From positions 127,324 through 191,323 of the forward strand of contig CAWHIX010000008.1 in assembly GCA_963829545.1 (NCBI GenBank): DNA of 64,000 bases, read 5' to 3'. Below are positions 5,877-36,829 of the stretch, piece by piece (the stretch's first letter is position 1; the number at the start of each line of letters is the position of its first letter). The notes under the pieces were generated by a model. It made no database searches. It saw only the letters and a program-made list of their open reading frames with translations, and was not told the DNA's origin. This DNA is from an uncultured Actinomycetes bacterium. Its GTDB lineage: Bacteria > Actinomycetota > Thermoleophilia > RBG-16-64-13. Both the position numbers and the translations under genes were made by a program.

Positions 5877-5886
5877 GGAGAGACTC

Positions 5887-6839: not shown

Positions 6840-6843
6840 CAAG

Positions 6844-8937: not shown

Positions 8938-8996
8938 GCATGGTCCACGCGGGCGATACCACGAGCGGAAGCGGCGCCAGGGCGCGGCACGGCTAC

Positions 8997-10859: not shown

Positions 10860-10890
10860 TGCATACAACTCGACCATACGGAGCCGACTG

Positions 10891-12597: not shown

Positions 12598-12637
12598 GAC
12601 CGACGGTCTCGCCGAGCTGGAGAAGGAGGTATCTCGC

Positions 12638-14474: not shown

Positions 14475-14563
14475 ATTCTATGTGCTGAAATATAGTTTGC
14501 CGATGACCAACGACGAGCGACGGCAGCCGGCAGGCGGCCGTCGCCCATCCAGGGGGTGAACGT

Positions 14564-17173
14564 ATGTCGCAAGAGGCGAAGGATGGACAAGGGGAAAGGA
14601 CTGTCTACCGCGGGCTGAGTTTCATAGGCATCGCGGCCGATGCGAACAGCGTGCGCGTGGAGTGCAAGGATGGCAGGATCATCCGCATCCGGCCTCTTCA
14701 ATACGACGAGAAGTATCCCGGCCTGGAGCCGTGGAAGCTGGAGGCTCGGGGCAAGAGCTTCTCCCCCAAGATGCTGTCGGCCGTTCCGCCGCTCAGCCTC
14801 GGCTACAAGAACCGGGTCTATTCCCCCAACCGGGTGCTGTATCCGCTGAAGAGGGTGGATTGGGACCCGACGGGCGCCCCCGGGTCCACCGGCCCCGGCG
14901 GGCGCAACCCGCAGAACCGCGGTCTCAGCAAGTACGAGCGCATCTCCTGGGATGAAGCTCTCGACATCGTGGTGGCCGAGATCGAGAGGGTCAAAGAGAA
15001 GTACGGCATGGAGGCCATCCTCTCCCAGTCCGACGGGCACGCCGAGACGAAGACCATCCATTCCGCTCACGGCTGTCACCGCCGTCTCCTCAGGATGCTG
15101 GGCGGCTACACGCTCCAGACCCGCAACACCGACAGTTGGGAGGGCTGGTACTGGGGCGCCAAACACGTGTGGGGTTGCGAGCTCCTGGGACAGATGGTGC
15201 CGGTCGCCAACGTCATGTCGGACGTCTCCAACAACTGCGACGGCATCCTCTTCTGGGGCTGTGACCCTGAGACCACTCCCTGGGGCTTCAACGGGCAAAC
15301 GGCCAGTCGGCTGAGCTACTGGTGGACCGAGTTGGGCATCAAGCAGATCTACATCGCTCCCGACTGCAACTACGGCAACGCCGTCCACGCCGACAAATGG
15401 ATCCCGGTGCTGCCCAACACCGACGCCGCCCTCTACCTTGCCATCGCTCACGTGTGGTTGACTGAGGGCACCTACGATCAGGAGTACGTCGAGACCCATG
15501 CCGTGGGCTTCGAGAAGTTCCGGGCCTACGTCCTGGGCGAAGAGGACGGCGTTCCCAAGAACCCCAAGTGGGCCGCGCCCATCACGGGCGTGCCTTCCTA
15601 CACCATCAGGGCCCTGGCCCGCTACTGGGGCAAGAAGACCGTCTCCATAGCCATCGGCAACGGTGGCCCGGGCATCAGGGGCCCGTACTCCACCGAGCCG
15701 GCCCGCCTGCAGGTATTGCTTCTGGCCATGCAGGGCGTCGGCAAACCCGGGGTGCACCAGTTCAAGATGATGGAGTGGGGGCTCTACAACAAGAAGTCCA
15801 ACAACCCCCTGCCCCCGCCCAAGTACATACCCCTCATGATGGGGGCCAACCGCGGCTGGCTCTACACGGACACACCGCCGCAGTTCATCCCCAAGGACCT
15901 CATCCCCGACGCCATCCTCAAGCCGCCCCTGAGTTGGTACGGCACCACGCTCTCCCGGGACTCGGTCGATCAGCAGTTCATCAAATACACCTATCCGCGT
16001 GAGGGCGGCACCGAGATCCACATGATCTGGACCGACAGCCCCTCCTGGATGACGTGCTGGAACGACACCAATTCGTTCGTCCGGGCTGCGCGCGACCCCA
16101 AGATCGAGTTCGTGCTCGCTCAGCACCCCTGGATGGAGAACGACTGCCAGCTCGCCGACCTGGTGTTGCCCTCGCTCACCATGATGGAGGTCGACGACAT
16201 CGGCTGTGATTCGCTGAGCGCCATCTTCTACGTCGTGTTCCATGAGCCCCGGGCCATCGAACCCAGGGGCGAATCGAAGAGCGACTACGAGATCGTCTGC
16301 GCTATCGCCGAGCGCTTCGGGATATTGGAGGAGTACACAGGCGGCAACAGTGTCGACGACTGGATCAAGGTCGGATACGAGACCTGCGGCGTGGCCGGCG
16401 ACATCAGCTTCGAAGAGCTGAAGGAGAAGGGGTACTTCGTAGTCCCGCACGATACCGAAGTGCCGAACGACGGCAAGGCCGGCCTGCTCGACTTCTACGA
16501 GGACCCGGAGGGCCATCCTCTGACCACGCCCAGCGGCAAGATCGAGTTCTACTCCGAGCGGCTGGCCACGCACTTCCCCGACGATAACGAGCGGCCGCCC
16601 ATGCCGCGTTGGATCCCGGAGGGAGAGTCGCACCAGGAGAGTCGGGACGGGGAGCGGGGCAAGAAGTATCCGCTGCTCGTCATCAGCAACCATCCCAGGT
16701 GGCGCGTGCACTCCCAGCACGACGACATGACCTGGCTGCGCGAGATCCGTACCTGCAAGGTCAAGGGTCCGGACGGATACCAGTACGAGCCGCTCTGGAT
16801 CCACCCCTCCGACGCCGAGGCGCGTGGCATCGCCGACGGCGAGGTGGTCACCATCTACAACGAGAGAGGCGCGGTGCTGGCCGGGGCCTGGGTCACGGAG
16901 AGGATCAGGCCGGGAGCGGTCTACATCGATCACGGGGCCCGCTGGGACCCCATCGTGCCCGGGGAGTTGGACCGTGGCGGTGCCATCAACACCATCACTC
17001 CCCACAACATCACCTCCAAGAACGCCACGGGCATGGTGTGCAGCGGCTTCCTGGTGGAGGTGGAACGGGCCGATCTGGATGCTCTGAGGAGGGCGTATCC
17101 GGAAGCGTTCAAACGGCCGTACCGCGCCGACGCCGGTCTCCGCTTGGAGCGCGTGCTGGAAGGGGGTCGGTGA
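14564..17173 (+). CDS. Pyrogallol-phloroglucinol transhydroxylase-like molybdopterin enzyme, large (alpha) subunit, module 1 (DMSO-reductase superfamily, cytoplasmic).
   Basis: 869 aa with no Tat signal. Blocks WKLEARGKSFSP, YPLKRVDWDP, YERISWDEALDIVVAEIERVKEKYG and DSWEGWYWG match the Pelobacter AthL sequence as I recall it (KIEARGKTFTPP, YERISWDEATDIVVAEINRIKHAYG, DSWEGWHWG). Confidence 0.85.
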   Translation: MSQEAKDGQGERTVYRGLSFIGIAADANSVRVECKDGRIIRIRPLQYDEKYPGLEPWKLEARGKSFSPKMLSAVPPLSLGYKNRVYSPNRVLYPLKRVDWDPTGAPGSTGPGGRNPQNRGLSKYERISWDEALDIVVAEIERVKEKYGMEAILSQSDGHAETKTIHSAHGCHRRLLRMLGGYTLQTRNTDSWEGWYWGAKHVWGCELLGQMVPVANVMSDVSNNCDGILFWGCDPETTPWGFNGQTASRLSYWWTELGIKQIYIAPDCNYGNAVHADKWIPVLPNTDAALYLAIAHVWLTEGTYDQEYVETHAVGFEKFRAYVLGEEDGVPKNPKWAAPITGVPSYTIRALARYWGKKTVSIAIGNGGPGIRGPYSTEPARLQVLLLAMQGVGKPGVHQFKMMEWGLYNKKSNNPLPPPKYIPLMMGANRGWLYTDTPPQFIPKDLIPDAILKPPLSWYGTTLSRDSVDQQFIKYTYPREGGTEIHMIWTDSPSWMTCWNDTNSFVRAARDPKIEFVLAQHPWMENDCQLADLVLPSLTMMEVDDIGCDSLSAIFYVVFHEPRAIEPRGESKSDYEIVCAIAERFGILEEYTGGNSVDDWIKVGYETCGVAGDISFEELKEKGYFVVPHDTEVPNDGKAGLLDFYEDPEGHPLTTPSGKIEFYSERLATHFPDDNERPPMPRWIPEGESHQESRDGERGKKYPLLVISNHPRWRVHSQHDDMTWLREIRTCKVKGPDGYQYEPLWIHPSDAEARGIADGEVVTIYNERGAVLAGAWVTERIRPGAVYIDHGARWDPIVPGELDRGGAINTITPHNITSKNATGMVCSGFLVEVERADLDALRRAYPEAFKRPYRADAGLRLERVLEGGR

Positions 17174-17174
17174 C

Positions 17175-18006
17175 ATGGGCAAGGTGATGGTCATAGACAT
17201 CACGAAGTGCAACGGCTGCTACAACTGCCAGATAGCCTGCAAGGACGAGCACTGCGGCAACGACTGGTCGCCTATCGCCAAACCGCAGCCGCTCAGCGGC
17301 CAGTTCTGGCACAAGGTCACCGACCGGGTGCGCGGCCAGGTACCCAAGGTCAAGGTGGCCTACGAGCACACCATCTGCCAACACTGCGCCGATGCGCCAT
17401 GCATGACGGCCTGTCCCGAGAAGGCCATCTACAGGCGCTCTGACGGAGCCGTGGTCATCGATCCGCAGGTCTGCAAGGGCAACCACAGTTGCGTGGAGAG
17501 CCTGCCCCTACGAGGGCGTGGTGTACTTCAACGAGGACCTCAAGATCGCGCAGAAGTGCACGTTCTGCGCGCATCTCCTCGACAAGGGATGGACCCAGAC
17601 CCGCTGCTCGGAGGCCTGTCCCACCGGGGCCATCTCCTTCGGGGAAGAAGAGGAACTTGCAGAACTGATCGCCGGAGCGGAACTGCTCCGTCCCGATCTG
17701 GATACAGGTCCGCGCGTGTACTACATCGGCTTGCCCAAGACCTTCATCGGGGCGACCGTCTATGACCCCGAAGCAGACGAGGTGGTGGAGCAGGCCCTGG
17801 TGACTCTGGAGCGGCTGGGAGACGAGGCGCCGGTGACGGCGCATACCGACGAGTTCGGCGACTTCTGGGTCGACGGCCTGCAGACCGGCGTCTACAACGT
17901 ATCCGTGGCGAAGGATGGCTACGTCACCATCGACATGGCGGCGGTGACGGTCGACAAGGACCTGAATCTCGGCGACCTTCCCATGCAGCAAGAGCGGAGG
18001 CGGTGA
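17175..18006 (+). CDS. Transhydroxylase-like small (beta, ferredoxin-type) subunit, module 1, with one apparent frameshift near 17505.
   Basis: MVIDITKCNGCYNCQIACKDEH corresponds to BthL MVIDVAKCQDCNNCFMGCMDEH. The C-terminal part is in the second ORF (17518..18006) with KPRVYY...GDFW...DLNLGDL. Restoring ..VESCPYEGVVYF requires a 1-nt indel in a cc run. Confidence 0.8.
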
Positions 18007-18318: not shown

Positions 18319-20907
18319 GTGGAAAAGACGGTATTGAAGGCCCTGGGTCAGTGCTCTTTCACCCGGAACGGAGATCCGGCGTCCATCGACGTGAAGGACG
18401 GCAGGATACTGCGCATCCGGCCCCTCCACTTCGAGGACAAATACACCAAGAAAGAGCTCAAGCCGTGGAGACTCGAGAAGGACGGAAAGGTACTCGATCT
18501 CGCGCTCAAGAGCTACCTGGCCCCCTACATGCTCGGCTACAAGAAGCGCGTCTACTCGCCCAACCGGATCCTCTATCCCCTCATCAGAGAAGACTGGGAT
18601 CCAAACGGGGAGCGCAACGTCGAGAACCGGGGCAAGAGCAAGTACAGGCGCATCTCCTGGGACGAGGCGACCACCCTCATCGCCGGCGAGATCAAGCGGG
18701 TACGCGAGACCTACGGACCCTATGCCGTTCTCTGCCACGGTGACGGCCACGGCGAGACCAAGTGCGTGCACGGTCCCCATTCGTGCCAGATGCTGCTGAT
18801 GGAGAAGGTGGGCGGCTATACGCAGGCCGTGCGCAACGCCGACAGCTGGGAGGGCTGGTACTGGGGCGCCGAGCACGTGTGGGGAGAGGGCATCCAGGGT
18901 CACCCCATGCCGGCCGACAACCTGCTCAACGACATCACCCAGCACACGCAGATGCTGGTCGCCATCGGCTGCGACTTGGAGACCACGCCTTGGGGCTTCG
19001 GCGGCCAGTTCCCCAGCAACGTCTGCTACTTCTGGTCCGATCTGGGGATCAAGCAGATCTCCATCGCCCCCGACCTCAACTACTACGCCGGCGTCCACGC
19101 CGACAAGTGGATCCCCATCCTGCCCAACACCGACGCCGCCCTGCAACTCGCCATCGCCTACACCTGGATCAAGGAGGGCATCTACGACAAGGAGTACGTC
19201 GCCACCCACGTGGTCGGTTTCGAGACCTTCCGCGCGTACGTCATGGGCGAAGAAGACGGCGTGCCGAAGTCGCCGGAATGGGCGGCCGAGAAGACGGGCG
19301 TCTCCGAATGGACCATCAAGGCGCTGGCCCGCCAGTGGGCGGAACAGATCACCTCGACGCTGCACTACTACGGCGGCTCGTACATCCGCGGCCCCTTCGC
19401 GCACGAGCCGGCGCGGCTGGAGTGCGTCCTCATGGGCATGCAGGGACTGGGCAAGCCGGGTCGCCACGTCTACGCCAAGATGGGCGACGGACTGTCCCAG
19501 GGCGACCTACCCAGGCCGACCGTCGCGCTCCAGCTGGGCATCATCCGCAGCCAGGTGTGGAGCGGTCGTGCCCTGCTCGAACTCACGCCCCAGATCATCC
19601 CCAAGACCCAGCTTCACCAGGCCATCCTCGACGGTTCGGTGAGCTCCTGGGGGAGCACGTCGCTCTACGCGCACATCGAAGATCAGTTCAAGAAGTACAC
19701 CTACCCCATCCCCGAGGAAGAGGGCGGGAGCGAGGTGCACATGATGTGGATGGACAACCCCTGCCGGACCACCTGCTGGAACAACAGCATGGAGTCCATC
19801 CAGGCCTACCGCAGCCCCAAGCTGGAGTGCATCGTCGTGCAGCACCCCTGGCTGGAGAACGACACCGTCTTCGCCGACATCATCCTGCCCATCAACACCA
19901 AGTTCGAAGAGGAAGACTTCGCCCAGATCTCGAGCGCGTCCCCGCTCAAGGGCATTGCCTACGAGAAGAAGGCCATCGAGCCTCTCGGCGAATCGCTGAG
20001 CGACTACGAGGCCGTCGGTGAGGTGGCCAAGAAGATGGGTCTCTACGAGGAGTACACCTCCGGCATGACCGTGCCTGAGAAGATCAAGTGGGCCTACGAG
20101 GTGTGCGGACTCAAGGACAACCTCACCTGGGAGGAGTTCCAGGACAAGGAGTACTACTACATACCCACCGAGGACGACTGGGAGAAGTACCCGGCCGGCA
20201 TGCGGCTCTTCTACGAGGATCCCGAGGCCAATCCGCTGATCACTCCCAGCGGCAAGCTCGAGTTCTACTCGCAGCGTCTGGCCGACCACTTCCCCGACGA
20301 CGAGGAACGTCCTCCCTATCCCAAGTGGATCGAGAAGGGGCCCAGCCACGACGAGCGCCTGTCCAGCGAGAGGGCTGAGAAGTACCCCTTCCTCTTGGTC
20401 AGCAACCACGCCCGCTGGAGGACCCACGCCGAGAACGACGACATCACCTGGCAGAGGGAGATCCGCACCTGCAAGATCAGGGGTTACGACGGCTACCAGT
20501 ACGAACCGGTCTGGATCCATCCGGAAGACGCGGCCTCCAGAGGTATCAAGGACGGGGATCTCGTCAAGCTCTTGAACGAGCGGGGCACGGTGTTGGGTGC
20601 CGCTCTGGTGTGGGAACGCATCATGCCCGGCGTGGTCTACCAGGACCACGGGGCTCGGGCGGATCTCATCAGCACCGAGGCCGGCAAGTCCATCGATCGG
20701 GGTGGGGCCAACAACCTCATCTCCCCGGCCAACGGCACCTCCCAGAACTGCTGGGGCATGGCCACGAGCGGCTTCCTGGTAGACGTGCAGAAGGTCAGCA
20801 TGGCCGAGATGGAGGAGTGGCGTCAGAAGTATCCCGATGCCTTCACGCGGGAGTACTCGCCGGCCGCGGGTCTGCGCTTCACGAGCTGGATCAAGGGAGA
20901 GGAGTAG
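18319..20907 (+). CDS. Pyrogallol-phloroglucinol transhydroxylase-like molybdoenzyme large subunit, module 2 (intact).
   Basis: 862 aa, paralogous to 14564..17173 (ELKPWRLEKDGK, YRRISWDEATTLIAGEIKRVRETYG, DSWEGWYWG). Confidence 0.85.
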   Translation: MEKTVLKALGQCSFTRNGDPASIDVKDGRILRIRPLHFEDKYTKKELKPWRLEKDGKVLDLALKSYLAPYMLGYKKRVYSPNRILYPLIREDWDPNGERNVENRGKSKYRRISWDEATTLIAGEIKRVRETYGPYAVLCHGDGHGETKCVHGPHSCQMLLMEKVGGYTQAVRNADSWEGWYWGAEHVWGEGIQGHPMPADNLLNDITQHTQMLVAIGCDLETTPWGFGGQFPSNVCYFWSDLGIKQISIAPDLNYYAGVHADKWIPILPNTDAALQLAIAYTWIKEGIYDKEYVATHVVGFETFRAYVMGEEDGVPKSPEWAAEKTGVSEWTIKALARQWAEQITSTLHYYGGSYIRGPFAHEPARLECVLMGMQGLGKPGRHVYAKMGDGLSQGDLPRPTVALQLGIIRSQVWSGRALLELTPQIIPKTQLHQAILDGSVSSWGSTSLYAHIEDQFKKYTYPIPEEEGGSEVHMMWMDNPCRTTCWNNSMESIQAYRSPKLECIVVQHPWLENDTVFADIILPINTKFEEEDFAQISSASPLKGIAYEKKAIEPLGESLSDYEAVGEVAKKMGLYEEYTSGMTVPEKIKWAYEVCGLKDNLTWEEFQDKEYYYIPTEDDWEKYPAGMRLFYEDPEANPLITPSGKLEFYSQRLADHFPDDEERPPYPKWIEKGPSHDERLSSERAEKYPFLLVSNHARWRTHAENDDITWQREIRTCKIRGYDGYQYEPVWIHPEDAASRGIKDGDLVKLLNERGTVLGAALVWERIMPGVVYQDHGARADLISTEAGKSIDRGGANNLISPANGTSQNCWGMATSGFLVDVQKVSMAEMEEWRQKYPDAFTREYSPAAGLRFTSWIKGEE

Positions 20908-20909
20908 CC

Positions 20910-21737
20910 GTGGCCGGGAAGGTGTTTGTCATCGATATAGCCCGCTGCAACGGTTGCTACTGCTGCCAGCTTTCCTGCAAAGACGAGCACGTGGGCAACG
21001 ACTGGACGCCCTATGCCAAGCCGCAGCCCGACACCGGGCAGTTTTGGCTCAAGCTGAACGAGTTCGTGCGGGGCACGGTACCCAAGGTGAAGCTCCACTA
21101 TATGGGCGTGCCCTGCCAGCACTGCGACCAGGCTCCCTGCCTGGAGTCCTGCCCTGTCGAGGGCGCCATCTACAAGCGCGACGACGGCCTGGTCATCATC
21201 GACCCGCAGAAATGTACCGGCTGCAGAGAGTGCCTGCTCTCCTGCCCGTACGACGCCCTGTTCTTCAACGACGACCTGAACATCGCCCAGAAGTGCACCG
21301 GTTGCGCCCATCTGCTCGACAAGGACTGGAAGGTCCCCCGCTGCGTGGATTCCTGCCCGACAGGGGCGATGAAGTTCGGGGACGAAGCGGAGTTCGCCGA
21401 AGAGATCGCCAGAGCCACTCTGCTCGGGCCCGCCGGCGAGACCAAGCCTCGCGTCTACTACCTCAACGTCCCCAAGCGCTTCGTCGGAGGGCTCGTGTAC
21501 GACCCGGTGGAGAAGGAGATCGTGCGGGGGGCCCGCTGCACTCTGGTGGACGCGGAGACCGGCGAGCAGCGGATCGTGGAGACCGATGGCTTCGGCGACT
21601 TCTGGTTCAAGGATCTGGAGGAGAGGACGTACTCGCTCACTATCGAAGCGGAGGGCTTCGCTCCCGTGCAGTACCCGTCGCTGGACACCAGCGACGACAT
21701 CAACCTGGGTGAGATCGCCCTCAGCCGCCCGACATGA
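20910..21737 (+). CDS. Transhydroxylase-like small ferredoxin-type subunit, module 2 (intact).
   Basis: GTG start 3 nt after the stop of the large subunit. VFVIDIARCNGCYCCQLSCKDEH and further CxxCxxC(x)3CP motifs. C-terminal beta-sandwich region (GDFWFKDL...DINLGEIAL). Confidence 0.85.
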   Translation: MAGKVFVIDIARCNGCYCCQLSCKDEHVGNDWTPYAKPQPDTGQFWLKLNEFVRGTVPKVKLHYMGVPCQHCDQAPCLESCPVEGAIYKRDDGLVIIDPQKCTGCRECLLSCPYDALFFNDDLNIAQKCTGCAHLLDKDWKVPRCVDSCPTGAMKFGDEAEFAEEIARATLLGPAGETKPRVYYLNVPKRFVGGLVYDPVEKEIVRGARCTLVDAETGEQRIVETDGFGDFWFKDLEERTYSLTIEAEGFAPVQYPSLDTSDDINLGEIALSRPT

Positions 21738-21954
21738 ACGGGATGACCATCACGTGGTCGCCGTCCTGCAGACGATGGTGAAGCCGGACGTAGACCCCGT
21801 TGACGAGGATCGCTTCGGTGTCGCCGGGAACGTGGAGGATCTCGAGCAGATCGTCCAGGGTCATGCCGTCTACGAGCGGCACGCAAACAGTCGGACGACC
21901 CTCCCTGGCCGGGAAGGTCTCCACGGTGACCGTGCTCTGTCTTTCGGCGTTCAT
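21721..21954 (-). CDS. MoaD/ThiS-family beta-grasp sulfur-carrier-like protein (about 77 aa) on the opposite strand.
   Basis: Ends ...LQDGDHVMVIPFMSGG (canonical C-terminal Gly-Gly). It overlaps the 3' end of the preceding small-subunit gene by 17 nt. The longer ORF (93 aa, start 22002) is the alternative. Confidence 0.6.
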   Translation of the reverse strand: MNAERQSTVTVETFPAREGRPTVCVPLVDGMTLDDLLEILHVPGDTEAILVNGVYVRLHHRLQDGDHVMVIPFMSGG

Positions 21955-22025
21955 GCCTGCCAGTTTACTCGCTGTGGGCCGTGCATGTGGCAAAGAGTCC
22001 ACGTCTAGTGGAGGGTTAGACTAAC

Positions 22026-24311
22026 ATGGGCGTCGAAGAGAAGAAGATCGTCTGCTGGGCGTCGCCGGGCTGCATCCATCAGTGCGGACTCATCGCCACC
22101 GTGAAGGACGGCGAACTGGTCGGCCTACGGGGCAACCCGGACTATCCCACCCCCAATCACGGCTGCGGCGACCGCATGCCTCACCACGCCAAGTGGCTGT
22201 ATAGCTCGGAGCAGCTTCTCTATCCGCTGAAGAGAAAGGGCGAGAGGGGCGAGAACCAATGGGAACGCGTCTCCTGGGATCAGGCCCTGGATGAGATAGC
22301 GACTAAGCTCGTCGACCTCAAGCAGGAGTACGGCGCCGAGACCCTCGCCGTCCAGGAGGGGACCTATCGCAACGATCACTACGGCCTGCGCGCCCGCTTC
22401 CTGCATCTCTTCGAAAACCCCATGAACATCGGCTGCGCCGGCACCATCTGCCGCTGCAACACTATCGCCCTCAACTACGCGCTCCTGGGCATGACCAACT
22501 CCAGACCGAAGCTGCCCAACCTCAAGTGTCTGGTCATCGAGGGCTGCAACCTCAGCGACACGGCCCCGCTCGATTTCCAGCGGCTCAAGAAACGCATGGC
22601 GGAAGGCGACCTCAAGCTCATCGTCATCGATCCCCGGCGCACCGAGGCGGGCAGGCTCGCCGACATCTGGGTGCAGTTGCGTCCGGGCACCGACACGGCT
22701 CTCTTCATGGCCTGGATCAATGTGATCATCGAGGAGGGTCTGTACGACAGGTCTTTCGTCGAGCAGTGGACCTTCGGCTTCGACGAGTTGCGCGCCCGGG
22801 CCGCCGAGTACACCCCCGAGAGGGTCGCGGAGATCACCTGGGTCTCCGCGGATGTCATCCGGGAATCGGCGCGCATGTACGCTACCAATTGGCCGGCGGG
22901 CTTCCACTGGGGAAGCGCCACCGACATGCTGGGGCGCAACTCCATCAGGGTCGAGCAGGCAAGGATCTGCCTGCGGGCCATCACGGGCAACCTGGCCATC
23001 GGCGGCGGGGAGGTGATCGTCGGGCCCGGGCCCATCATCGGCGGCACCATCGGCGTGCGCGATTCCATGCTCGCCCTGCCCGAGAAGGTCAGCCCCGAGC
23101 AGCGGAAGAAACAGCTCGGCGCCGATAGGTTCAAGCTTCTCGGGTGGCCGGGCTACGAGGCCATGGGCAAGTATCACGAGGAGACCTACGGCGTGCCCTT
23201 CCCCACGGCGGCCCACAACTTCGTGGCGGTGCAGCCTCTCATCTGGAAGGCGGTCCTCGAGGAAGACCCCTATCCGGTGAAGGCCATGATCACCTGGGGC
23301 AGCAACGTGCTCCTCAACGGGGGAGACGTCAAGACCATCTACAAGGCGCTCAAGAGTCCCAACCTGGAGTTGCACGTGGTGCTGGAGCACTTCATGACGC
23401 CCACGGCACTCCTGGCCGATTACGTGCTTCCCATAGCGAGCAAGCTCGAAAAGCCCATGTGCGCCACCCACGAGGACTTCGCACCCAACATCGCCTGCGG
23501 CGAGGCGGCGGTGGAGCCGCGGGGCGAGCGCCGCGGCGACTTCTTCGTGTGGAAGGGGCTTGCCGACCGCCTGGGCTTCGGCGAGTACTTTCCCTGGGCG
23601 ACGGAGGAGGAGTTGGCCGACTATCGCCTGGCTCCTCTGGGCCGGACTTTCAAGGAAGTCGCCACCCAGGAGTACTTCGTGCGTAGCGACGAGCCCTGGA
23701 CCTACGACACCATCAACCCCAGGACGGGCAAGCGGACCGGGTTCGCCACTCCGTCGGGCAAGGTGGAACTCTACTCCAACGTGCTGGAGCAGCTGGGCTA
23801 CGACCCCCTGCCCTTCTACGAGGAACCCCCGGAGAGCCCCATCAGCACCCCGGAGGTGGCCGTGGAGTACCCGTACATACTCATCACGGGCGGCAACTTC
23901 CGGCCCATGTTCCACTCCGAGAACCGGCAACTGGGTGTCGGCACCCGCGAGCAGTACCCCGACCCCATCATGGACATCCACCCGGACACCGCCCGAGAGC
24001 ACGGCATCGAGGAGGGCGACTGGGTGTTCGTCGAGACCCGCAAAGGCGTGATCCGGCAGCGGGCCAAGCTCACGGACGAGATCGACCCACGGGTGGTCAA
24101 CGTGCAGAGCCACTGGTGGTTCCCGGAGCAGCCGGCTCGAGAGCCGTGGCTGCATGGTCTTTGGGAGTCGAACTGCAACGTGCTCACTGCCGCGGACGAC
24201 CCGGATACCTTCGACCCGGTGACCGGCGGTTGGCCGCTGCGTGCGCTCCTGTGCAAGGTCTACAAGGCGGAGACCGTCGGTGGGCGGACTCCATCGCCCC
24301 GAAGTACGTGA
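22026..24311 (+). CDS. Cytoplasmic molybdo/tungstopterin oxidoreductase of the DMSO-reductase superfamily, acetylene-hydratase-like clade (tentative).
   Basis: 761 aa. N-terminal Cys motif VCWASPGCIHQCG...HGCGD ([4Fe-4S]) and no Tat signal. Blocks YPLKRKGERGENQWERVSWDQALDEIA, LKSPNLELHVVLEHFMTPTALLADYVLP and the C-terminus PLRALLCKVYKAE resemble what I remember of acetylene hydratase. Confidence 0.8.
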   Translation: MGVEEKKIVCWASPGCIHQCGLIATVKDGELVGLRGNPDYPTPNHGCGDRMPHHAKWLYSSEQLLYPLKRKGERGENQWERVSWDQALDEIATKLVDLKQEYGAETLAVQEGTYRNDHYGLRARFLHLFENPMNIGCAGTICRCNTIALNYALLGMTNSRPKLPNLKCLVIEGCNLSDTAPLDFQRLKKRMAEGDLKLIVIDPRRTEAGRLADIWVQLRPGTDTALFMAWINVIIEEGLYDRSFVEQWTFGFDELRARAAEYTPERVAEITWVSADVIRESARMYATNWPAGFHWGSATDMLGRNSIRVEQARICLRAITGNLAIGGGEVIVGPGPIIGGTIGVRDSMLALPEKVSPEQRKKQLGADRFKLLGWPGYEAMGKYHEETYGVPFPTAAHNFVAVQPLIWKAVLEEDPYPVKAMITWGSNVLLNGGDVKTIYKALKSPNLELHVVLEHFMTPTALLADYVLPIASKLEKPMCATHEDFAPNIACGEAAVEPRGERRGDFFVWKGLADRLGFGEYFPWATEEELADYRLAPLGRTFKEVATQEYFVRSDEPWTYDTINPRTGKRTGFATPSGKVELYSNVLEQLGYDPLPFYEEPPESPISTPEVAVEYPYILITGGNFRPMFHSENRQLGVGTREQYPDPIMDIHPDTAREHGIEEGDWVFVETRKGVIRQRAKLTDEIDPRVVNVQSHWWFPEQPAREPWLHGLWESNCNVLTAADDPDTFDPVTGGWPLRALLCKVYKAETVGGRTPSPRST

Positions 24312-24352
24312 AGCGTTCTGGGGGCGAGAGCGCCGCAGAGAAGGAGAGGCTC

Positions 24353-27257
24353 ATGTCGAGTGACGGACTTCGTGGCATCGAGCCGGCGGGTGGTCGGGGA
24401 GAGCAGTCGTTCGTTCACCACCCGCTTATCCCGTACGACCCGAATGTCGCCCTGTATTTCGCCGCCGGCCCCGTGCTGCTCCCCTTCGAGTACACCGGGT
24501 GGCAGGACGAAGTGATGTCGTACAAGCAGTCCTGTTACATCAGAGGTTCTGGCCATGAGCGTGAAGGACCGAGGCTCGACATCGGGGCCGAGCGGCAGGT
24601 CATCCGCGGAACCGGTCTACTCGGGCCCGGAGACTCGGGACCGCCGGCCCTCGTGCACGTCAAGGAAGACAGGATCACGAGGATCAGGCCCCTGAACTAC
24701 GAGCTCGAGTACGACAAGAAGGACTTCAATCTCTGGAAGATGGAGGCGAGGGGAAAGACCTTCGCACCTCCCCTGCGTGCAGTCCTAGGTCCCATCGGTC
24801 AGGCCTACAAGAAGCGCGTGTACTCCAAGAACCGAGTGCGTTATCCGCTCAAGCGGGTGGACTGGGACCCCGAGGGCGCTTCGGGGTCCGACGGTCCCGG
24901 CGGGCGCAACACCCAGAACCGGGGGCGGAGCAAGTACGTGCGCATCGGCTGGGACGAGGCCGCCGAGTTGGTGGCGGCGGAACTGAAGAGGATGAAGGAG
25001 ACCTACGGTCCCGAGGCCGTGCTCTCCCAGTCCGACATGCATGGCGAGACGAAGCACCTCAGTCCCAGCCATGGCTGTGCCAACCGCCTCCTCTCCCTGT
25101 TGGGTGGCTACACCGTCCAGATGCGCAACCTGGACAGCTGGGAAGGGCAGAACTGGGGCGCCAAGCACGTGTGGGGTTGCGAGCCGGTAGGGGAGATGGG
25201 GCCGACGGCCAACCTCTACCCCGACATCGCCGAGCACGGGGAACTGCTCCTCTTCTGGGGTTGCGACCCGGAGACCACCGCCCATCCCATCCAGGGCATG
25301 CTGGCCAGCCGGCTCTGCTACTGGCTCTCGGACGTCGGTCTGAAGTCCGTCTACGTCTGTCCCGACCTCAACTACGGCGCCGCCGTGCATGCGGATAAGT
25401 GGATCCCCGTCCTGCCCAACACCGATGCCGCGCTGCAGCTGGCCATCGCTTACGTGTGGATCACCGAAGGCACCTACGACAAGGACGTACATCGCCACCC
25501 ATTCCTACGGCTTCGACAAGTTCGAGGACTACGTCCTGGGCAAAGAGGACGGCGTGCCCAAGACGCCGGCGTGGGCGTCTGAGAAATGCGGCGTACCGGA
25601 CTTCACCATCAAGGCGCTCGCTCGCGACTGGGCCGATAAGATCACCAGCCTCATCCACGGCAATGCCGGCCCGGGCATAAGAGGCCCTTACTCCACTGAG
25701 CCGGCCCGCCTGGAGGCCATGCTCCTGGGCATGAGCGGACTGGGCAAGCCCGGCGTCCACCAGGCCAAGATGATCGAGTGGTTCCTGTGGCACAAGTGGC
25801 TGCCCTTGCCGTATCAGGGCAAAGTCACGCCCGCCCTGCCCCTGTTCGCCGAGCAGGTGCGCCCGGCAGGAGCAATGACCTTCAAGGACGGCATGATGGG
25901 CACCTACGCGGGTACTCACCCCGAAATGCGGGCCCTGACCGCACCCGCGGCCAATCCGCCTCTCCAAGTCATCCCCAAGTGCCTCATCCACGACGCCATC
26001 CTCGACCCGCCCATCAGCTGGTGGGGCCTGCACGGTTTTCTCGAACCGGTCGCGGAGCAGTTCAAGGAGCACACCTATCCGGCTCCGGGATGCTCGGAGG
26101 TGCACATGATCTGGACCGACTCCCCCTGCTGGATCACCTGCTGGAACGACTCCAACAGCTACATCAAGGCTCTCCAGTCGCCCTCCGTCGAGTGCATCGT
26201 GGCCCAGCATCCCTGGCTGGAGAACGACTGCCTCATGGCGGACATCATCCTGCCGGTAGGGACCCGCTACGAGATGCTCGACATCGGTGAGGACGTGGGT
26301 AGCGGTGTCGTCATGTCCATCTATCTGCAGGATCACTGCGTGAACCCAGTGGGGGAATCGCTGTCCGACTTCGACGTGGTGGCGAAGATCGCCGAGAAGC
26401 TGGGTCTGCTGGAGGATTACACACAGGGCAAGACCATGGAGGAGAAGCAGAGACTGGCCTTCGACGGCTCCGGCGTGGAAGACCTCATCTCCTGGGAGGA
26501 TCTAAGGAGAAGCAATACTTCGTCATCCCCTGCAGCGACGACGTGAAGGACCAGCCGCCCGGCCTGCGCGATTTCGCCGACGACCCGGCAAGGCCAGCCC
26601 TCTGAGCACCCCCACCGGTCTGCTGGAGTACTCGTCGAGCGCTCTGGAGGAGCACTTCCCCGACGACCCGGAGCGGCCGCCGGTGGCGCACTGGATCGAG
26701 AAGGGCGAGAGTCACGACGAGCGGCGCAGCAGCGAGCGGGCTGCGGAGTATCCGCTGCTCTGCATGTCGAACCACCCTCGCTGGCGCATGCACGCCCAGG
26801 GCGACGACATCACCTGGACCCGCGAAATACCGACGATGAAGATCACGGGAGCGGACGGTTATCAGTACGAGCCGGTGTGGCTCAACACCGCCGAGGCGGA
26901 GCTGCGGGGCATCGCTCAGGGCGATATCGTCAAGATCTACAACGAACGGGGCATCGTCCTGGGCGGCGCCTTCGTCACCGAACGGCTCATGCCCGGCGTG
27001 GCCTACATGGACCACGGAGCCAGGTGGGACCCCATCATCCCCGGCAAGCTGGACCGGGGGGAGCCATCAACACCATCACGCCGCACAAGGTCACCTCCAA
27101 GAGGGCGACCGGCATGGTGGTGAGCGGGTTCCTGGTCGAGGTGGCCAAGGTGAGCGACGAGGAGATGGCCGGCTGGCGCCGGGACTACCCGGAGGCCTTC
27201 GACAGAGACTACGACGCTCGTGACGGGCGTGTCCCTGTCCGGCTGGCTTCAGGAATA
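24353..27257 (+). pseudogene. Transhydroxylase-like large subunit, module 3. It has an unusual N-terminal extension of about 75 aa and at least 4 apparent frameshifts.
   Basis: Ribosome-binding site AAGGAGAGG before the ATG. After the extension the protein aligns with modules 1 and 2 (LDIGAERQVIRGTG.., WKMEARGKTF, VRIGWDEAAELVAAELKRMKETYG). The frame breaks at about 25490, about 26510, about 27060 and about 27200. The true end is probably ..SGWLQE* at 27257. Confidence 0.7.
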
Positions 27258-27267
27258 AGGAGGAGAG

Positions 27268-28084
27268 ATGGCCAAGAGCATTCGTCATAGACGTGGGACG
27301 CTGCTGCGGCTGCTACAACTGCCAGCTCGCCTGCAAGGACGAGCACGTCGACAACGACTGGACTCCCTACGCCAAGCCGCAGCCGGACACGGGGCAGTTC
27401 TGGCTGAAGATAGAAGAGAACGTGTGCGGCACCGTCCCCAAGGTGCGGATGCATTACATCCCCCGGCTCTGCAACCACTGCGCGAACGCACCCTGCATCG
27501 ACTCGTGCCGGGATGCTGCTATCACGCGGCGCGATGACGGGCTGGTGATCATCGAACCGGAGAAGTGCACGGGGTGTGAGGCCTGCGTGACGGCTTGCCC
27601 GTACGAAGCCATCTATTTCAACGACGAACTCGCCCTCGCGCAGAAGTGCACAGGCTGCGCGCATTTGCTGGACAACGGCTTCAAACTGCCCCGTTGTGTC
27701 GAATCCTGCCCCACGGATGCTATACGCTTTGGCGAGGAAGAAGACCTGCAGGAGCTCATCGCCGGTGCCGTCGTCCTCAAGCCGGAGACGGGCAGCCGGC
27801 CGCGCGTCTACTACCGGAACATACCCGGCAAGTTCATCAGCGGCACGGTGTTCGACCCGGTCGAGCGGGAGGTCGTCATCGGAGGGCGCTGCCTGCTGAC
27901 CTCGGGTGGCAAGGTGGTCGAGACCTTCACCGATGCCTACGGCGACTTCTGGTTCAACGACCTGGCGGTGGGCAGGTACGACGTGAGTATCGAGGCCGAC
28001 GGGTTCACGCCCAGGTACTTCTCCGCTCTCGATACCGCCAAGGACGTCAACCTGGGCGAGATACCGCTCACTCGGAAATCCTGA
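27268..28084 (+). CDS. Transhydroxylase-like small ferredoxin-type subunit, module 3 (frameshift right after the start codon, or GTG start at 27293).
   Basis: Ribosome-binding site AAGGAGGAGAG then ATG. MAKS.. is followed in the +1 frame by AFVIDVGRCCGCYNCQLACKDEH... The rest of the gene is intact (263 aa ORF from 27293) with four Cys clusters and C-terminal GDFWFNDL..DVNLGEIPL. Confidence 0.75.
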
Positions 28085-28104
28085 GGGGCTGGGGAGCAGC
28101 TCAC

Positions 28105-30862
28105 ATGGACATCGGCGCGGACAAGCAGGTCATCCGGGGCTCGGGCCTCATCGGATCGGGAGATTCCGGTCCCCCCACCCTCGTGGACGTCAAGGACGGC
28201 AGGATCACGAGGATCAGGCCCCTCGACTACGAGTCGAAGTACGACAAGAAGGACTTCAACGCCTGGAAGATGGAGGCGAAGGGAAAGACGCTCGATCCTC
28301 CCCTGCGCGCCTCGCTGGGTCCCATCGGCCAGGCCTACAAGAAGCGGGTCTACTCCAAGAACCGGGTGCGCTATCCGCTCAAGCGCGTGGACTGGGACCC
28401 GGGAGGGGCGCCGGGGTCCGTCGGCCCCGGCGGGCGAAACACCCAGAACCGGGGCACGAGCAAGTACGTGCGCATCTCCTGGGACGAGGCCGCCGAGTTG
28501 GTGGCGGCCGAGTTGCGGCGCATGAAGCAAGACCTACGGTCCCGAGGCCGTGCTCTCCCAGGCCGACATGCACGGAGAGACGCAAGCACCTCAGCCCCAG
28601 CCACGGCTGCGCCAACCGGCTGCTCTCGCTGCTGGGCGGCTACACCATCCAGATGCGCAACCTGGACAGCTGGGAAGGCCAGAACTGGGGCGCCAAGCAC
28701 GTGTGGGGCTGCGAGCCGGTGGGGGAGATGATGCCGGCCGCCAACCTCTACCCCGACATCGCCGAGAACGGGGAGCTGTTGCTGTTCTGGGGCTGCGACC
28801 CAGAGACCACGTCCGCACGCCATCCAGGGCCAGTTCGCGAGCAACCTGTGCTACTGGCTCTCCGAGGTCGGCCTCAAGTCCGTCTACGTCTGCCCCGACC
28901 TCAACTACGGCGCCGCGGTTCATGCCGACAAGTGGATCCCCATCCTTCCCAACACCGACGCCGCGCTGCAGCTCGCCATCGCTTACGTGTGGATCACCGA
29001 AGGCACCTACGACAAGGAGTACATCGCCACCCACTCCTACGGCTTCGACAAGTTCGAGGACTACGTCCTCGGCAAAGAGGACGGCGTGCCCAAGACGCCC
29101 GCGTGGGCCTCGGAGAAGTGCGGCGTCCCCGACTTCACCATCAAGGCGCTGGCCCGCGACTGGGCGAAGAAGACCACCAGCCTCATCCACGGCAACGGCG
29201 GGCCCGGCATCAGAGGGCCGTTCTCCTCCGAGCCGGCCCGGCTCGAAGCCATGCTCCTGGGCATGCAGCGGCCTGGGCAAACCCGGCGTCCACCAGGCCA
29301 AGATGCTCGAATGGTGGATCTGGGGCGAGTGGTTTCCCATCCCCTATCAGGGCAAGATCAGGCCCAACCTGGCCGGCTTCTCCGAGCAGTGCCGCCCGGT
29401 CGACTGCATGGACCCGACGCGGATGATCCCGCCCCTCTACTTGGGCGCCCATCCGGAGATGCTGGAACTGACCAAGCTCACCGACCAGCCTCCACTCGCA
29501 GGCCATCCCCAAGTGCCTGATCCACGACGCCATCCTCAACCCGCCCATCAGCTGGTGGGGCCTGCACGGCTTCCATGGAGCCGGCAGAGGAGCAGTTCAC
29601 GCAGCACACCTATCCGGCCCCGGGGCTGCTCGGAGATCCACATGATCTGGACCGACTCGCCCTGCTGGATCACCTGCTGGAACGACTCCAACACCTACAT
29701 CCAGGCCCTGCAAAGTCCCTCGATCGAGTGCATCGTGGCCCAGCATCCCTGGCTGGAGAACGACTGCCTCATGGCCGACATCATCCTTCCGGTCAGCACG
29801 AGGTTCGAGATGCTGGACATCGGCAACGACCTGGGCAGCGGCGTGCTTCACCTCCGTCTTCCTGGAGGAGCCACTGCATCGACCCCGTGGGCGAGTCGCT
29901 CTGCGACTTCGACGTCGTGGCCAAGATCGCCGAGAAGCTGGGGCTGTGGGAGGAGTATACTCAGCGGCAAGACCATGGAGGAGAAGCAGAAGCTCGCCTT
30001 CGATGCCTCGGGCATGGACGAGCTGGTCATCCTGGGAGGAGCTGCAAGAAGAAGCAGTACTTCGTCATGCCCTGCAGCGACGAGGTCAAGGACCAGCCGC
30101 CCGGCCTCAGCCCGTTCGCGCAACGACCCGAAGAACAATCCGCTGACCACGCCCACCGGCCTCCTCGAGTATTCCTCGAGCGCCCTGGAGAAGCACTTCC
30201 CCGACGATCCCGAGCGACCGCCTGTGGCTCACTGGATCGAGAAGAGCGAGAGCCACGACGAGCGCCTGAGCAGCGAGCGGACCGAGCAGTATCCGCTCCT
30301 CTGCATGTCGAACCATCCGCGGTGGCGCATGCACGCCCAGGGCGACGACATCACCTGGACGCAGAGAGGTTCCCGACCATGAAGGTCAAGGGTCCCGACG
30401 GCTATCTCTACGAACCGGTGTGGCTCAACCCCGCGGAGGCGGACTCCCGGGGCATCGCGCACGGCGACATCGTGAAGATCTTCAACGAGCGGGGCATCGT
30501 GCTGGGCGGCGCCTACGTCACGGAGCGGCTCATGCCCGGGTGGCCTACATGGATCACGGGGCCAGGTGGGACCCGATCATCCCCGGCAAGCTGGACCGCG
30601 GGGGGGCGATCAACACCATCACACCGCACAAGGTCACGTCCAAGAACGCCACGGGCATGGTCGTGAGCGGGTTCCTGGTCGAGGTGGCAGAAGGTCGACC
30701 GACGAGGAGATGGCCGGCTGGCGCCGGGACTACCCGGAGGCGTTCAGCCGGGACTACGACCTGGCGACGGGCGTGTCGCTGTCGGGCTGGCTGGAGCAAT
30801 CAGGCGCGGCGCTGCCCAGGCGGACCCGCAGAAGGAGTGAGACACCACATGTACACGTGTAA
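28105..30862 (+). pseudogene. Transhydroxylase-like large subunit, module 4. It is a recent duplicate of module 3, heavily disrupted with at least 7 apparent frameshifts.
   Basis: MDIGADKQVIRGSGLIGSGDSGPPTLVDVKDGRITRIRPL... is about 90% identical at the nucleotide level to module 3. An example stretch is gtcctgcccaacaccgatgccgcgctgcagctggccatcgcttacgtgtggatcaccgaaggcacctacgacaag, which occurs in both copies. The reading frame jumps between at least six partial ORFs (27595.., 28550.., 28653.., 28987.., 29575.., 30420..). Confidence 0.7.
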
Positions 30863-32897: not shown

Positions 32898-32924
32898 GCG
32901 ACCAAGGAGGAGGGGAGGATGTCA

Positions 32925-35347: not shown

Positions 35348-36731
35348 ATGAGCACCAACACCAGCAATGATTCAAAGCCCGGGATCCCACAGGATCCGAT
35401 GTTCTCCGGGTGGGAGCAGCTGGACTGGAAGGAACGCCGCGAGCGCCGCTTCGAGCGCTGGAAGAGTGCCCCGGACGTCCAGTTTGCGAGCGAGTCGGTC
35501 AAGCGCGACTACCAAGAGCGCGCCCAGAACCTCATCGATGCCATCACCCTCAAGAAGCCGGCCCGCGTGCCGACCACTGCCTCGGTCGGCTACTACGTGG
35601 GCAAGTACAGCGGGCTCAGCAAGAAGGAGTCCATGTACGATTACGAGAAGTCGGCGGCGGCTCTCGTCAAGTATCACGAGGACTTTCGCCCCGATTTCCA
35701 GACCTCGGCGGTGGCTCCGGCCAAGGTCTTCGAGAAGCTCGGCCTCGAGCTCGTCGACTGGCCGGGCAGGGGCCTGGCGGACGACACGCCCTGGCAGTAT
35801 CTCGAGACGGAGTACATGCGTGAGGACGAGTACGACGCCCTCATCGCCGATCCGGAGGTCTACTTCCGGCGCAGCCTGCTGCCCCGCTTCGGGTCGGCTT
35901 TCGCTCCCCTGGCCGGGCCGGCGCCCTTTACCGACATGATGGAAGCCACCACCATGCTCTTCAGCATCCTGCCCTTCGCCGATCCGGCGGTGGTTGAGGG
36001 AGTGCAGAGGCTGGCCGACGCCGCTCGGGAGTGCCTTGCCTACCTGACAGCCATGGGGGCCGCCGGCGCGGATGCGGCCGGGCGATTGGGCATCCCGTCT
36101 TCGTTCGGGGGTCTCGCCAAAGCTCCCTACGACATCCTGGCCGACACCCTGCGGGGCACGAAGGGCATAATGGTCGACCGCTTCCGCCGGCCGGAGAAGA
36201 TCCTCGAAGCCTCCGAGCGGCTGGTGCCCATCGTGGTCGAGTGGTGCACCCGCCAAGCCTCGCGGCCGGGTGGACCGCTCATCATCTTCGTTCTGCACAA
36301 GGGCGCCGACAGCTTCATGTCCGATGCCGACTTCCGCACCTTCTACTGGCCGACGCTGAAGGCGGTCATGAAAGGCGTCATCGAACAGGGCATCGTGCCC
36401 ACCATGTTCGCGGAGGGGGGCTACAACAAGAGGCTGGAAGTGATCGCCGACCCCGAACTGCCCACCGGCAGCGTGCTGTGGCTGTTCGACCAGACCGACA
36501 TGGCGCGCGGCCAAGCGGGCGCTGGGCGGCCACTCCTGCATCGCCGGCAACGTCCCCACGGCGCTACTGGCCTTGAGCACCGTCGACGAGGTGAAGGCCT
36601 ACACCACCGACCTGCTCGACACCTGCGCCAGGGACGGCGGCTTCATGCTCGAGAACGGTGCCGTCCTGGACGATGCGAAGCCCGAGAACCTCAAGGCCAT
36701 GCTGGAGACGGGTCAGAACTGGCGCGGCTGA
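35348..36731 (+). CDS. Uroporphyrinogen-decarboxylase (UroD/MtaA/CmuA)-fold family protein, one apparent frameshift near 36515.
   Basis: About 460 aa. The C-terminal region in the shifted frame (GGHSCIAGNVPTALL..GT.DEVKAYTTDLLDTCARDGGFMLENG..ENLKAML) is the typical UroD-like ending. This fold is used by corrinoid-dependent methyltransferases and decarboxylases. Confidence 0.55.
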
Positions 36732-36829
36732 TGACCTGCGAACTCAGGCGCGGTTTCTTCGGCCGCGGTTTCTGTTGATCGACAACAAACTAGCGCGCAT
36801 CGGCGCCCTGGTGAGAACGGAGGCACGAC

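Follow-up and report, generated by a model that had tools for sequence, protein, structure and literature searches.

What reaction would be expected of a molybdenum or tungsten enzyme whose closest characterized relative hydrates acetylene, but whose gene lies among genes for a transhydroxylase of aromatic compounds? This question is raised by a 64,000-nt stretch of contig CAWHIX010000008.1 (GenBank assembly GCA_963829545.1, positions 127,324 to 191,323) from an uncultured Actinomycetes bacterium of the Thermoleophilia, referred to here as the window. The gene concerned, named AHL for its relation to acetylene hydratase (AH), encodes a predicted Mo/W enzyme of the bis-molybdopterin guanine dinucleotide (bis-MGD) type and is flanked by genes resembling athL and bthL, which encode the subunits of pyrogallol-phloroglucinol transhydroxylase. 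An earlier sequence-only reading had regarded a non-redox hydratase or a hydroxylase-type activity as plausible for the product. As judged from sequence comparison, AHL is not an acetylene hydratase and belongs to a tight, strongly conserved cross-phylum orthologous clade of its own within the AH radiation; a ferredoxin-dependent reductive dehydroxylation of a catechol/polyphenol-type substrate is tentatively favored as its function.

AHL compared with acetylene hydratase

The reading frame of AHL starts with ATG, is intact and comprises 761 codons for 761 aa. It matches the Pfam families Molybdopterin (E 8e-31) and Molydop_binding (E 3e-17), and a database search yielded more than 4,300 homologues, including some 120 clusters of at least 60% identity, all of about 760 aa. 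Since both Pfam domains and many full-length homologues are found, the plus-strand frame is a real gene and not an artifact of the high G+C content of the window (64%), in which long spurious open reading frames (ORFs) occur on both strands. A 676-aa antisense ORF over AHL was rejected as spurious, the coding strand being fixed by homology. The description of the product as a member of the DMSO reductase family by the sequence-only reading is supported by these results, and so is the resemblance to AH that it had noted in internal blocks and near the C-terminus: in a phmmer search of all PDB sequences AHL matched AH of Pelobacter/Syntrophotalea acetylenicus (AhyA; 2e7z) best (448 bits, E 5e-133, residues 8-747), with an identity of 38% according to BLASTP, and the C-terminal block LRALLCKVYK corresponds to LRGGILAKAYK in AH. 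An AlphaFold2 (AF2) model derived from 30 sequences of the family (pLDDT 82.9, pTM 0.87), with low confidence around residues 624-642, was aligned to 2e7z by Foldseek with TM scores of 0.86/0.90 (E 5e-61). The next-best solved relative was the polysulfide reductase subunit PsrA, at 212 bits and a TM score of 0.75. AHL shares with AH, along its entire length, the four-domain bis-MGD fold, and further a cysteine metal ligand, an N-terminal four-Cys [4Fe-4S] site (Cys9, Cys12, Cys16 and Cys46 in AH), the cytoplasmic location without a Tat signal and the lack of a partner subunit.

Residues were assigned from an HMMER alignment to 2e7z, a 125-sequence MAFFT alignment in which 120 family members were counted, and alignments of 72 and of 30 sequences; the active-site assignments rest on alignment to AH and not on a cofactor-containing structure. 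The N-terminal cluster motif named by the sequence-only reading was found again, its cysteines C10, C16, C20 and C47 being invariant in the 30-sequence family alignment, with an atypical C-x5-C-x3-C spacing instead of the usual C-x2-C-x3-C, that is, with a 3-residue insertion, and the Pfam Fe4S4 model PF04879 gave no match on the AHL sequence. The first cluster cysteine is already the tenth residue and an RR motif is missing, in agreement with the stated absence of a Tat signal. The stated absence of a small subunit likewise agrees with the gene maps: across 44 orthologous loci no Fer4 gene is conserved beside AHL, the BthL-like ferredoxins flanking AHL pair with AthL, and loci without AthL/BthL have no adjacent Fe-S gene. 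Taken from these features, AHL is a soluble stand-alone cytoplasmic enzyme with a predicted bis-MGD cofactor and one predicted N-terminal [4Fe-4S] cluster.

Despite the overall likeness, the defining catalytic features of AH are missing from AHL. The comparison of the Cys ligand and the Asp/Ile pocket, which the sequence-only reading had recommended as a check, came out in favor of AH for the ligand alone, AH Cys141 corresponding to Cys142 and being kept in 120/120 family members. AH Asp13 is replaced by Ile17, and this position is occupied by His (52), Lys (12), Ser (12), Val (11) or Ile (10) among the 120 family members, never by a conserved Asp; AH Lys48, which is placed between cluster and pterin, is replaced by Asp49, followed by Arg50, which is at least 90% conserved in the family. 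The hydrophobic pocket of AH is reportedly formed by Ile14, Ile113, Ile142, Trp179, Trp293 and Trp472. Among these six positions only Trp293 is kept (Trp295 in AHL), the others being His18, Tyr114 (Tyr in 96/120 members), Arg143 (variable in the family, G/R/A/M/F), Phe184 (Trp in 116/120) and Glu483 (Glu in 113/120), and the adjacent Asp484, at the position of AH Glu473, is invariant in the 30-sequence alignment. Trp179 and Trp472 are confirmed active-site neighbors in AH, and Asp13 is specific to the AH subfamily, with D13E being tolerated and D13A abolishing activity (2025 review, PMC12096430). Sequences that do branch with AH (Mycobacterium simiae, metagenome-assembled genomes (MAGs) of Solirubrobacterales, P0142 and P0161) keep the motifs C-x2-C-D, C-x-K, HSW, P-W and FQ[ST], whereas AHL has FHSENRQ in place of FQSCYHQ of AH. 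Because Asp13, Lys48 and five of the six hydrophobic pocket residues are replaced, AHL fails as an acetylene hydratase at the level of its sequence. Its predicted pocket is largely polar or charged (His18, Tyr114, Arg143, Glu483/Asp484), which appears unsuited to acetylene and would suit a hydroxylated and/or carboxylated substrate.

In neighbor-joining (NJ) trees (56 taxa, 714 columns, 100 bootstraps) the AHL family, the AH clade and the clade of the catechol dehydroxylases Cldh and Dodh were each recovered in 100/100 bootstraps. In 99/100 bootstraps the AHL family joined the AH clade and left the Cldh clade outside, the opposite grouping, with Cldh but without AH, being seen in 1/100; the AHL family and the AH clade sit in a bush of many uncharacterized lineages, and Psr-like sequences of Desulfocapsaceae and cable bacteria fell far outside. 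When 1.84 billion representatives were searched exhaustively with HMMER, 1,607 matched at E<=1e-30; about 45 of these outscore the AH level, and the AHL family collapses to about one representative at 50% identity. Orthologues at least 59% identical occur across five bacterial phyla, namely in Actinomycetota (Gaiellales/Thermoleophilia), Chloroflexota (Dehalococcoidia, Chloroflexia), Acidobacteriota, Desulfobacterota (Desulfospira, Desulfuromonadaceae, Desulfobacterales, Syntrophorhabdaceae) and Bacillota (Eubacteriales Family XIII), and those of Bathyarchaeia are 44-52% identical. The Family XIII members carry the isolate names Im510, Pcl387, Ncb351 and Nm470, which resemble those of a termite-gut MAG series, although the records do not state so. 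That many uncharacterized homologues of AH and the dehydroxylases exist was already known (PMC7028382), and a family 'AH (?)' has been listed (PMC10100899). What is new is the definition of one tight cross-phylum clade in this radiation, whose close members are all MAGs and whose hallmarks are the C-x5-C-x3-C motif, the replacement of both Asp13 and Lys48, an acidic pair within a polar pocket, the lack of a partner and a recurrent gene context.

Gene context of the orthologues

For the 44 loci, gene context was mapped with a limited set of reference proteins as tblastn queries, and precomputed Pfam matches were available for ten of them; single-linkage clustering of six-frame ORFs, in which spurious high-GC ORFs became chained, was discarded and replaced by the tblastn maps. 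The neighbors are dominated by enzymes typical of the anaerobic transformation of hydroxylated and methoxylated aromatic acids: AthL/BthL, UbiD decarboxylases, enzymes resembling 4-hydroxybenzoyl-CoA reductase (HBCR), aryl-CoA ligases, putative methyltransferases similar to uroporphyrinogen decarboxylase (URO-D), enoate reductase-type members of the old yellow enzyme (OYE) family and aldehyde:ferredoxin oxidoreductases (AFORs). AHL stands in a context of aromatic or carboxylate catabolism, in contrast to AH, which serves acetylene fermentation. AFOR is the commonest neighbor, with 16 of the 44 loci in several phyla and a position directly upstream of AHL in L088; OYE genes were found in 13 loci, URO-D-like genes in 12, and AthL/BthL in 13, including one of Bathyarchaeia (L037).

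In Actinomycetota the genes are ordered as MutL-like, cupin-like, unknown, SnoaL-like, OYE/FAD reductase, AFOR, two short-chain dehydrogenases/reductases (SDRs), a second AFOR, ThiS-like (on the opposite strand), AHL, URO-D-like and OYE, and in the window a glycyl radical enzyme (GRE) and its activase precede the MutL-like gene. The same upstream order is found in L001, L005-L009, L012, L014 and others, the block of MutL-like, cupin-like and SnoaL-like genes preceding the core of OYE and AFOR in related Actinomycetota, and in most related actinobacterial loci the URO-D-like gene lies directly downstream of the AHL orthologue. Sets of AthL/BthL stand before and/or after AHL in some of these genomes. 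The embedding of AHL in a transhydroxylase array, as described by the sequence-only reading, is therefore true of the window and recurrent, but it is variable and not obligatory, because AthL/BthL are absent from some genomes that retain the conserved AFOR-ThiS-AHL-URO-D/OYE core (L001, L012, L009 and others).

Outside Actinomycetota the partners vary. In the desulfobacterotal loci L085/L049 and L024 a three-subunit enzyme of the xanthine oxidase (XO) family, similar to HcrCAB, lies directly 3' of AHL (12285-16088 in L085), and in L085/L049 a TRAP transporter and two CoA ligases precede AHL. The large subunit of the XO-family enzyme in L081/L010 (4196-7079 in L081) has 4-hydroxybenzoyl-CoA reductase as its best PDB match (236 vs. 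190 bits). In all, such a three-subunit enzyme adjoins the AHL orthologue in three loci of Desulfobacterota/Syntrophorhabdaceae. This arrangement suggests that AHL and the HBCR-like enzyme form a two-enzyme dehydroxylation module. Two UbiD decarboxylases, a pyruvate:ferredoxin oxidoreductase-type enzyme (POR), an AFOR and an ABC transporter accompany AHL in a deltaproteobacterial MAG (L084), and a URO-D-like gene, an XO-family enzyme, a PEP mutase-like gene, FmdE, Crp and a PrpD-like gene do so in Syntrophorhabdaceae; in these two series AHL has its place after AFOR and between FmdE and Crp, respectively.

Furthermore, a GRE with its activase recurs beside the AHL family in Actinomycetota, Family XIII, Desulfospira and Chloroflexia (the copy in L002 spans 5045-7561). 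The order is TRAP permease, AHL, GRE, activase and, further on, MutL-like and PrpD-like in Family XIII; TRAP, GRE, activase, PrpD-like, AHL and TetR in Desulfospira; and PrpD-like, followed at some distance by AHL, flavoprotein, electron-transfer flavoprotein, GRE and activase in Chloroflexia. Co-localization of GRE, activase and MutL-like genes with the AHL family was seen in L002/L016, L013, L022, L030 and L031. The Cys loop of the GRE in the window reads NASGCLGYH, and because no Glu is present at Cys+2 the recurring GRE is not a canonical eliminase; with about equal scores of ~330-357 bits to many different GRE classes in the PDB, it appears from its sequence to be an uncharacterized subtype. 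The best matches of the PrpD-like neighbor are IRG1/cis-aconitate decarboxylase and IDS epimerase, at only ~120 bits. A literature search for the combination of GRE, PrpD and molybdopterin enzymes returned nothing relevant, and one for acetylene hydratase and glycyl radical returned only irrelevant papers citing an AH review; one Chloroflexi metagenome paper merely notes acetylene hydratase-like genes beside pyrogallol hydroxytransferases.

Proposed reductive dehydroxylation and the competing reactions

Because of these conserved neighbors, we propose that the substrate of AHL would be an aromatic acid of plant or lignin origin, or a partly reduced form of such an acid, on which a C-OH bond is formed or cleaved. 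The substrate class, the choice of redox over non-redox chemistry, the electron donor and the metal are what we infer here: Mo or W would be held by bis(MGD) and Cys142, and electrons would pass to the N-terminal cluster from free ferredoxin, which could be reduced by, e.g., the neighboring AFOR, POR or flavoenzymes. Dehydroxylation is favored because every characterized member of the superclade besides AH is a catechol dehydroxylase and as such a redox enzyme (PMC7028382), because the AHL family keeps an apparently ancestral FHSExRQ motif that AH has lost, because the tandem with the HBCR-like enzyme mirrors the pairing of a DMSO reductase-type with an XO-type dehydroxylase in urolithin formation (bioRxiv 10.1101/2025.01.17.632430), and because the URO-D and OYE neighbors would be in place if O-demethylation and side-chain reduction came before dehydroxylation.

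The likeness to the catechol dehydroxylases extends to the protein itself. AHL is 31-33% identical to Cldh, Dodh and a third Gordonibacter sequence, all taken from the alignment deposited with PMC7028382, and AH is 29-31% identical to the same three, with 30% to Cldh. The Gordonibacter-type enzymes (Cldh, Dodh, Gp Hcdh, Eadh1-3) have, as AHL does, a catalytic subunit of about 770 aa without a Tat signal (PMC11585353). The N-terminal insertion W-x-x-P-G-C-x-x-x-C and the FHSExRQ motif (FHSENRQ in AHL, FHSE[WH]RQ in Cldh/Dodh) are common to both, and both stand in a polyphenol-related context. In contrast, the first cluster Cys of AHL is absent in Cldh/Dodh, and the Asp13 position, Ile in AHL and most often His in its family, is His in 3/3 Gordonibacter sequences. 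No active-site or EPR study of a catechol dehydroxylase was found in the literature search.

Several observations speak against dehydroxylation by AHL. In the trees, which are distance-based only, the family groups with AH and not with the characterized dehydroxylases, and every characterized catechol dehydroxylase is co-encoded with a dedicated multi-[4Fe-4S] partner, of which the AHL family has none. The FHSExRQ motif looks ancestral and is not diagnostic, because it is widespread across the superclade and lost in the AH clade. Moreover, the adjacency of AFOR fits an AH-like hydration to an aldehyde equally well, the GRE, PrpD-like and TRAP partners in Family XIII, Desulfospira and Chloroflexia point to (poly)carboxylates and not necessarily to aromatics, and no close family member was found in a cultured organism in the collections searched.

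The main rival to dehydroxylation, although a doubtful one, is a non-redox, AH-like hydratase or dehydratase acting on a polar unsaturated substrate such as a substituted alkyne, allene, enol or alkene, in which Glu483/Asp484 or His18 would replace Asp13 as acid/base and the carbonyl product would be passed to the neighboring AFOR or SDR. AH is the closest characterized relative and is equally devoid of an electron-transfer partner, and the AHL family groups with the AH clade (99/100); the frequency of AFOR across phyla, the acidic pair at the position of AH Trp472/Glu473 and the co-localized GRE and PrpD-like families, whose members commonly produce or consume unsaturated or carbonyl intermediates, would also be in line with hydration. 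However, the AH-defining Asp13 is absent and its position is not conserved in the AHL family, the FHSExRQ motif lost by the AH clade is kept, no second Mo/W-bis-MGD hydratase was found among the solved structures and literature searched, and a redox reaction would be at least as compatible with the aromatic-dehydroxylase setting (HcrCAB-like, UbiD, AthL). The hydratase proposed by the sequence-only reading hence stands as one possibility and not as the favored one, because the wider clade contains catechol dehydroxylases that share FHSExRQ and W-x-x-P-G-C with AHL. The hydroxylase-type option raised there, a water-dependent oxidative hydroxylase or hydroxyl transferase of the aromatic ring analogous to resorcinol hydroxylase or the AthL type, is improbable. 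It would account for the co-localization with AthL/BthL in 13 loci, and in a Thauera 3,5-dihydroxybenzoate cluster an AthL-like hydroxylase and an enzyme of the AH/Cdh type do occur together (PMC7028382). AthL is, like AHL, a cytoplasmic member of the DMSO reductase superfamily and is encoded in the same gene cluster, but AHL is only 24% identical to its neighboring AthL (107 bits). AthL has the AhtL-like_1st domain (PF21423), no FeS Cys motif and an obligatory BthL; AHL gave no match to PF21423 and has the four-Cys motif instead, so that the distinction from the flanking genes drawn by the sequence-only reading is sound. AHL also lacks an electron-acceptor partner, AthL/BthL are missing from many orthologous loci, and the hosts appear to be strict anaerobes or fermenters, to which an electron sink would be more useful than an oxidase.

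Reduction of an inorganic compound or an S/N-oxide (polysulfide/thiosulfate, nitrate, formate or similar) is very improbable, despite the automatic labels 'thiosulfate reductase / polysulfide reductase chain A' and 'anaerobic selenocysteine-containing dehydrogenase'. PsrA is the second-best PDB match, PsrA/PhsA share the Cys ligand and the FS0 cluster with AHL, and formate dehydrogenase alpha subunit and PhsA are the top partial NCBIfam matches; these matches, however, remain far under their cut-offs, with 242.8 bits for PhsA (cut-off 694) and 262.7 bits for TIGR01591 of the formate dehydrogenase (cut-off 666.25), the latter being good only over residues 16-330. The 24 partial NCBIfam matches were rejected as a source of a name for AHL, since none comes near its cut-off. 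Psr is exported by Tat and works with PsrB/PsrC, whereas AHL has neither a Tat signal nor such partners, Psr-like sequences are distant in the trees, and the gene context is devoid of sulfur or nitrogen metabolism. A placement in the polysulfide/thiosulfate reductase or formate dehydrogenase clades, which the sequence-only reading had named as the finding that would overturn it, was thus not observed. That AHL is a genuine acetylene hydratase and a marker of acetylenotrophy can be considered next to impossible: the best sequence and fold match, the cytoplasmic monomer, the Cys ligand and the FeS cluster would agree with it, but AHL has retained neither Asp13 nor Lys48 and only one of the six pocket residues, the D13A exchange abolishes AH activity (PMC12096430) and AHL lies outside the AH clade (100/100).

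For the AHL family, the pipeline labels thiosulfate/polysulfide reductase and 'selenocysteine-containing dehydrogenase' are hence unsupported, and the same applies to acetylene use, for which AH homologues are sometimes taken as markers. The neighbors of AHL point to the anaerobic turnover of compounds derived from lignin or polyphenols, a poorly understood part of carbon cycling in soil and peat. Once identified, the AHL reaction would be a new activity in the AH/catechol dehydroxylase radiation, from which two reaction types are known, and would tell whether hydratase chemistry ends and redox chemistry begins where Asp13 is lost. More specifically, and with a good deal of doubt, the clade may represent the first polyphenol dehydroxylase that depends on ferredoxin and stands alone, or else a second type of non-redox Mo/W hydratase in which the acid has moved from the Asp13 loop to the Glu483/Asp484 loop. 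If so, AHL together with the atypical GRE, the PrpD-like and the MutL-like proteins would constitute a new route by which aromatic or polycarboxylic acids from plants are processed anaerobically in uncultured bacteria of soil, sediment and termite guts.

The window around AHL

The features of AHL and of its surroundings are compiled in Table 1. On either side of AHL lie genes for large subunits resembling AthL, four in all, of which two are broken by frameshifts, together with genes for BthL-like ferredoxins.

Table 1. Sites within AHL and neighboring genes, with positions in the window
Feature	Position	Strand	Basis
AHL, AH-related Mo/W bis-MGD enzyme	22026..24311	+	ORF/translation, Pfam PF00384 and PF01568, PDB match 2e7z, AF2 model
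Shine-Dalgarno sequence GGAGGG, 10 nt 5' of the AHL ATG	22010..22015	+	read from sequence
Cluster motif C10-W-A-S-P-G-C16-I-H-Q-C20 (C-x5-C-x3-C)	22053..22085	+	HMMER alignment to 2e7z, family alignments
Fourth cluster Cys47, then G-D49-R50 (AH: C46-M-K48)	22164..22175	+	alignments
Cys142, predicted Mo/W ligand (AH Cys141), then Arg143 (AH Ile142)	22449..22454	+	alignments
Family-specific T481-H-E483-D484-F, Glu483 aligned to AH pocket Trp472	23466..23480	+	alignments
F629-H-S-E-N-R-Q635 motif (AH: FQSCYHQ)	23910..23930	+	alignments; AF2 confidence low here
GRE, partial at window edge	54-1988	+	Pfam
GRE activase	2077-2988	+	Pfam
MutL-like	3495-4937	+	PF13941, E 4e-149
OYE/FAD enoate reductase-type	6844-8937	+	Pfam
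AFOR (first)	8934-10859	+	Pfam
SDR	10846-11721	+	Pfam
SDR, frameshifted	~11703-12588	+	Pfam
AFOR (second), frameshifted	12653-14495	+	Pfam
AthL-like	14564-17173	+	Pfam AhtL-like_1st and Molybdopterin, ORF reading, tblastn
BthL-like, frameshifted	17175-17991	+	Pfam Fer4_11, ORF reading, tblastn
AthL-like	18319-20907	+	Pfam, ORF reading, tblastn
BthL-like	20904-21737	+	Pfam Fer4_11, ORF reading, tblastn
ThiS/MoaD-like with Gly-Gly end, divergent from AHL, likely ATG at 21945	21721..22002	-	PF02597, E 1.8e-10
AthL-like, frameshifted	24590-27227	+	Pfam, tblastn map
BthL-like	27275-28084	+	Pfam, tblastn map
AthL-like, frameshifted	28120-30686	+	Pfam, tblastn map
URO-D-like	35348..36778	+	Pfam, tblastn map

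Genes split into overlapping frames were noted in the window at 11433-14495, 17175-17991, 24116-30686 and 30420-32943, affecting an SDR, the second AFOR, a BthL, two AthL-like genes and an OYE reductase, and a like pattern was seen in related loci from 'MFD...' MAGs (L033, L039, L042). Because so many genes near AHL are frameshifted, assembly indels seem more likely than a cluster of pseudogenes. The end of AHL is probably affected as well: P0001, a protein of 779 aa that is 99% identical to AHL, diverges from it only after ...KVYKAETVGGR, so that the final ~10 codons were probably touched by an indel or frameshift.

The second AFOR is ~31-33% identical to the first and is kept as a distinct paralogue across loci; as a conserved, divergent paralogue, it may have a function other than simple aldehyde oxidoreduction. 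A third gene of the AFOR family is located at 43270-45069 on the minus strand. The ThiS/MoaD-like gene stands alone on the minus strand between BthL and AHL, and its position after the second AFOR and divergent from the AHL orthologue is kept in 15 actinobacterial loci; its product may serve sulfur transfer to the Mo/W cofactor of the pterin enzymes of the cluster. No Mo/W transport or cofactor genes bearing on the metal were found in the window between 38 and 51 kb. The Pfam family PF13941, to which the MutL-like protein belongs, includes the glutamate mutase-associated MutL/GlmL, and no B12 mutase genes were present among the window ORFs scanned. Two weak cupin-like ORFs, an ORF without a Pfam match and a SnoaL-like ORF follow the MutL-like gene on its 3' side up to 6839. 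Just 3' of AHL, a short plus-strand frame (24354-24590) contains PFEYTGWQDEVMSYKQSCYI and is interrupted by a stop, looking like a remnant or a frameshifted gene; we take it to resemble the N-terminus of GcvT/aminomethyltransferase-type proteins, e.g., aromatic O-demethylases.

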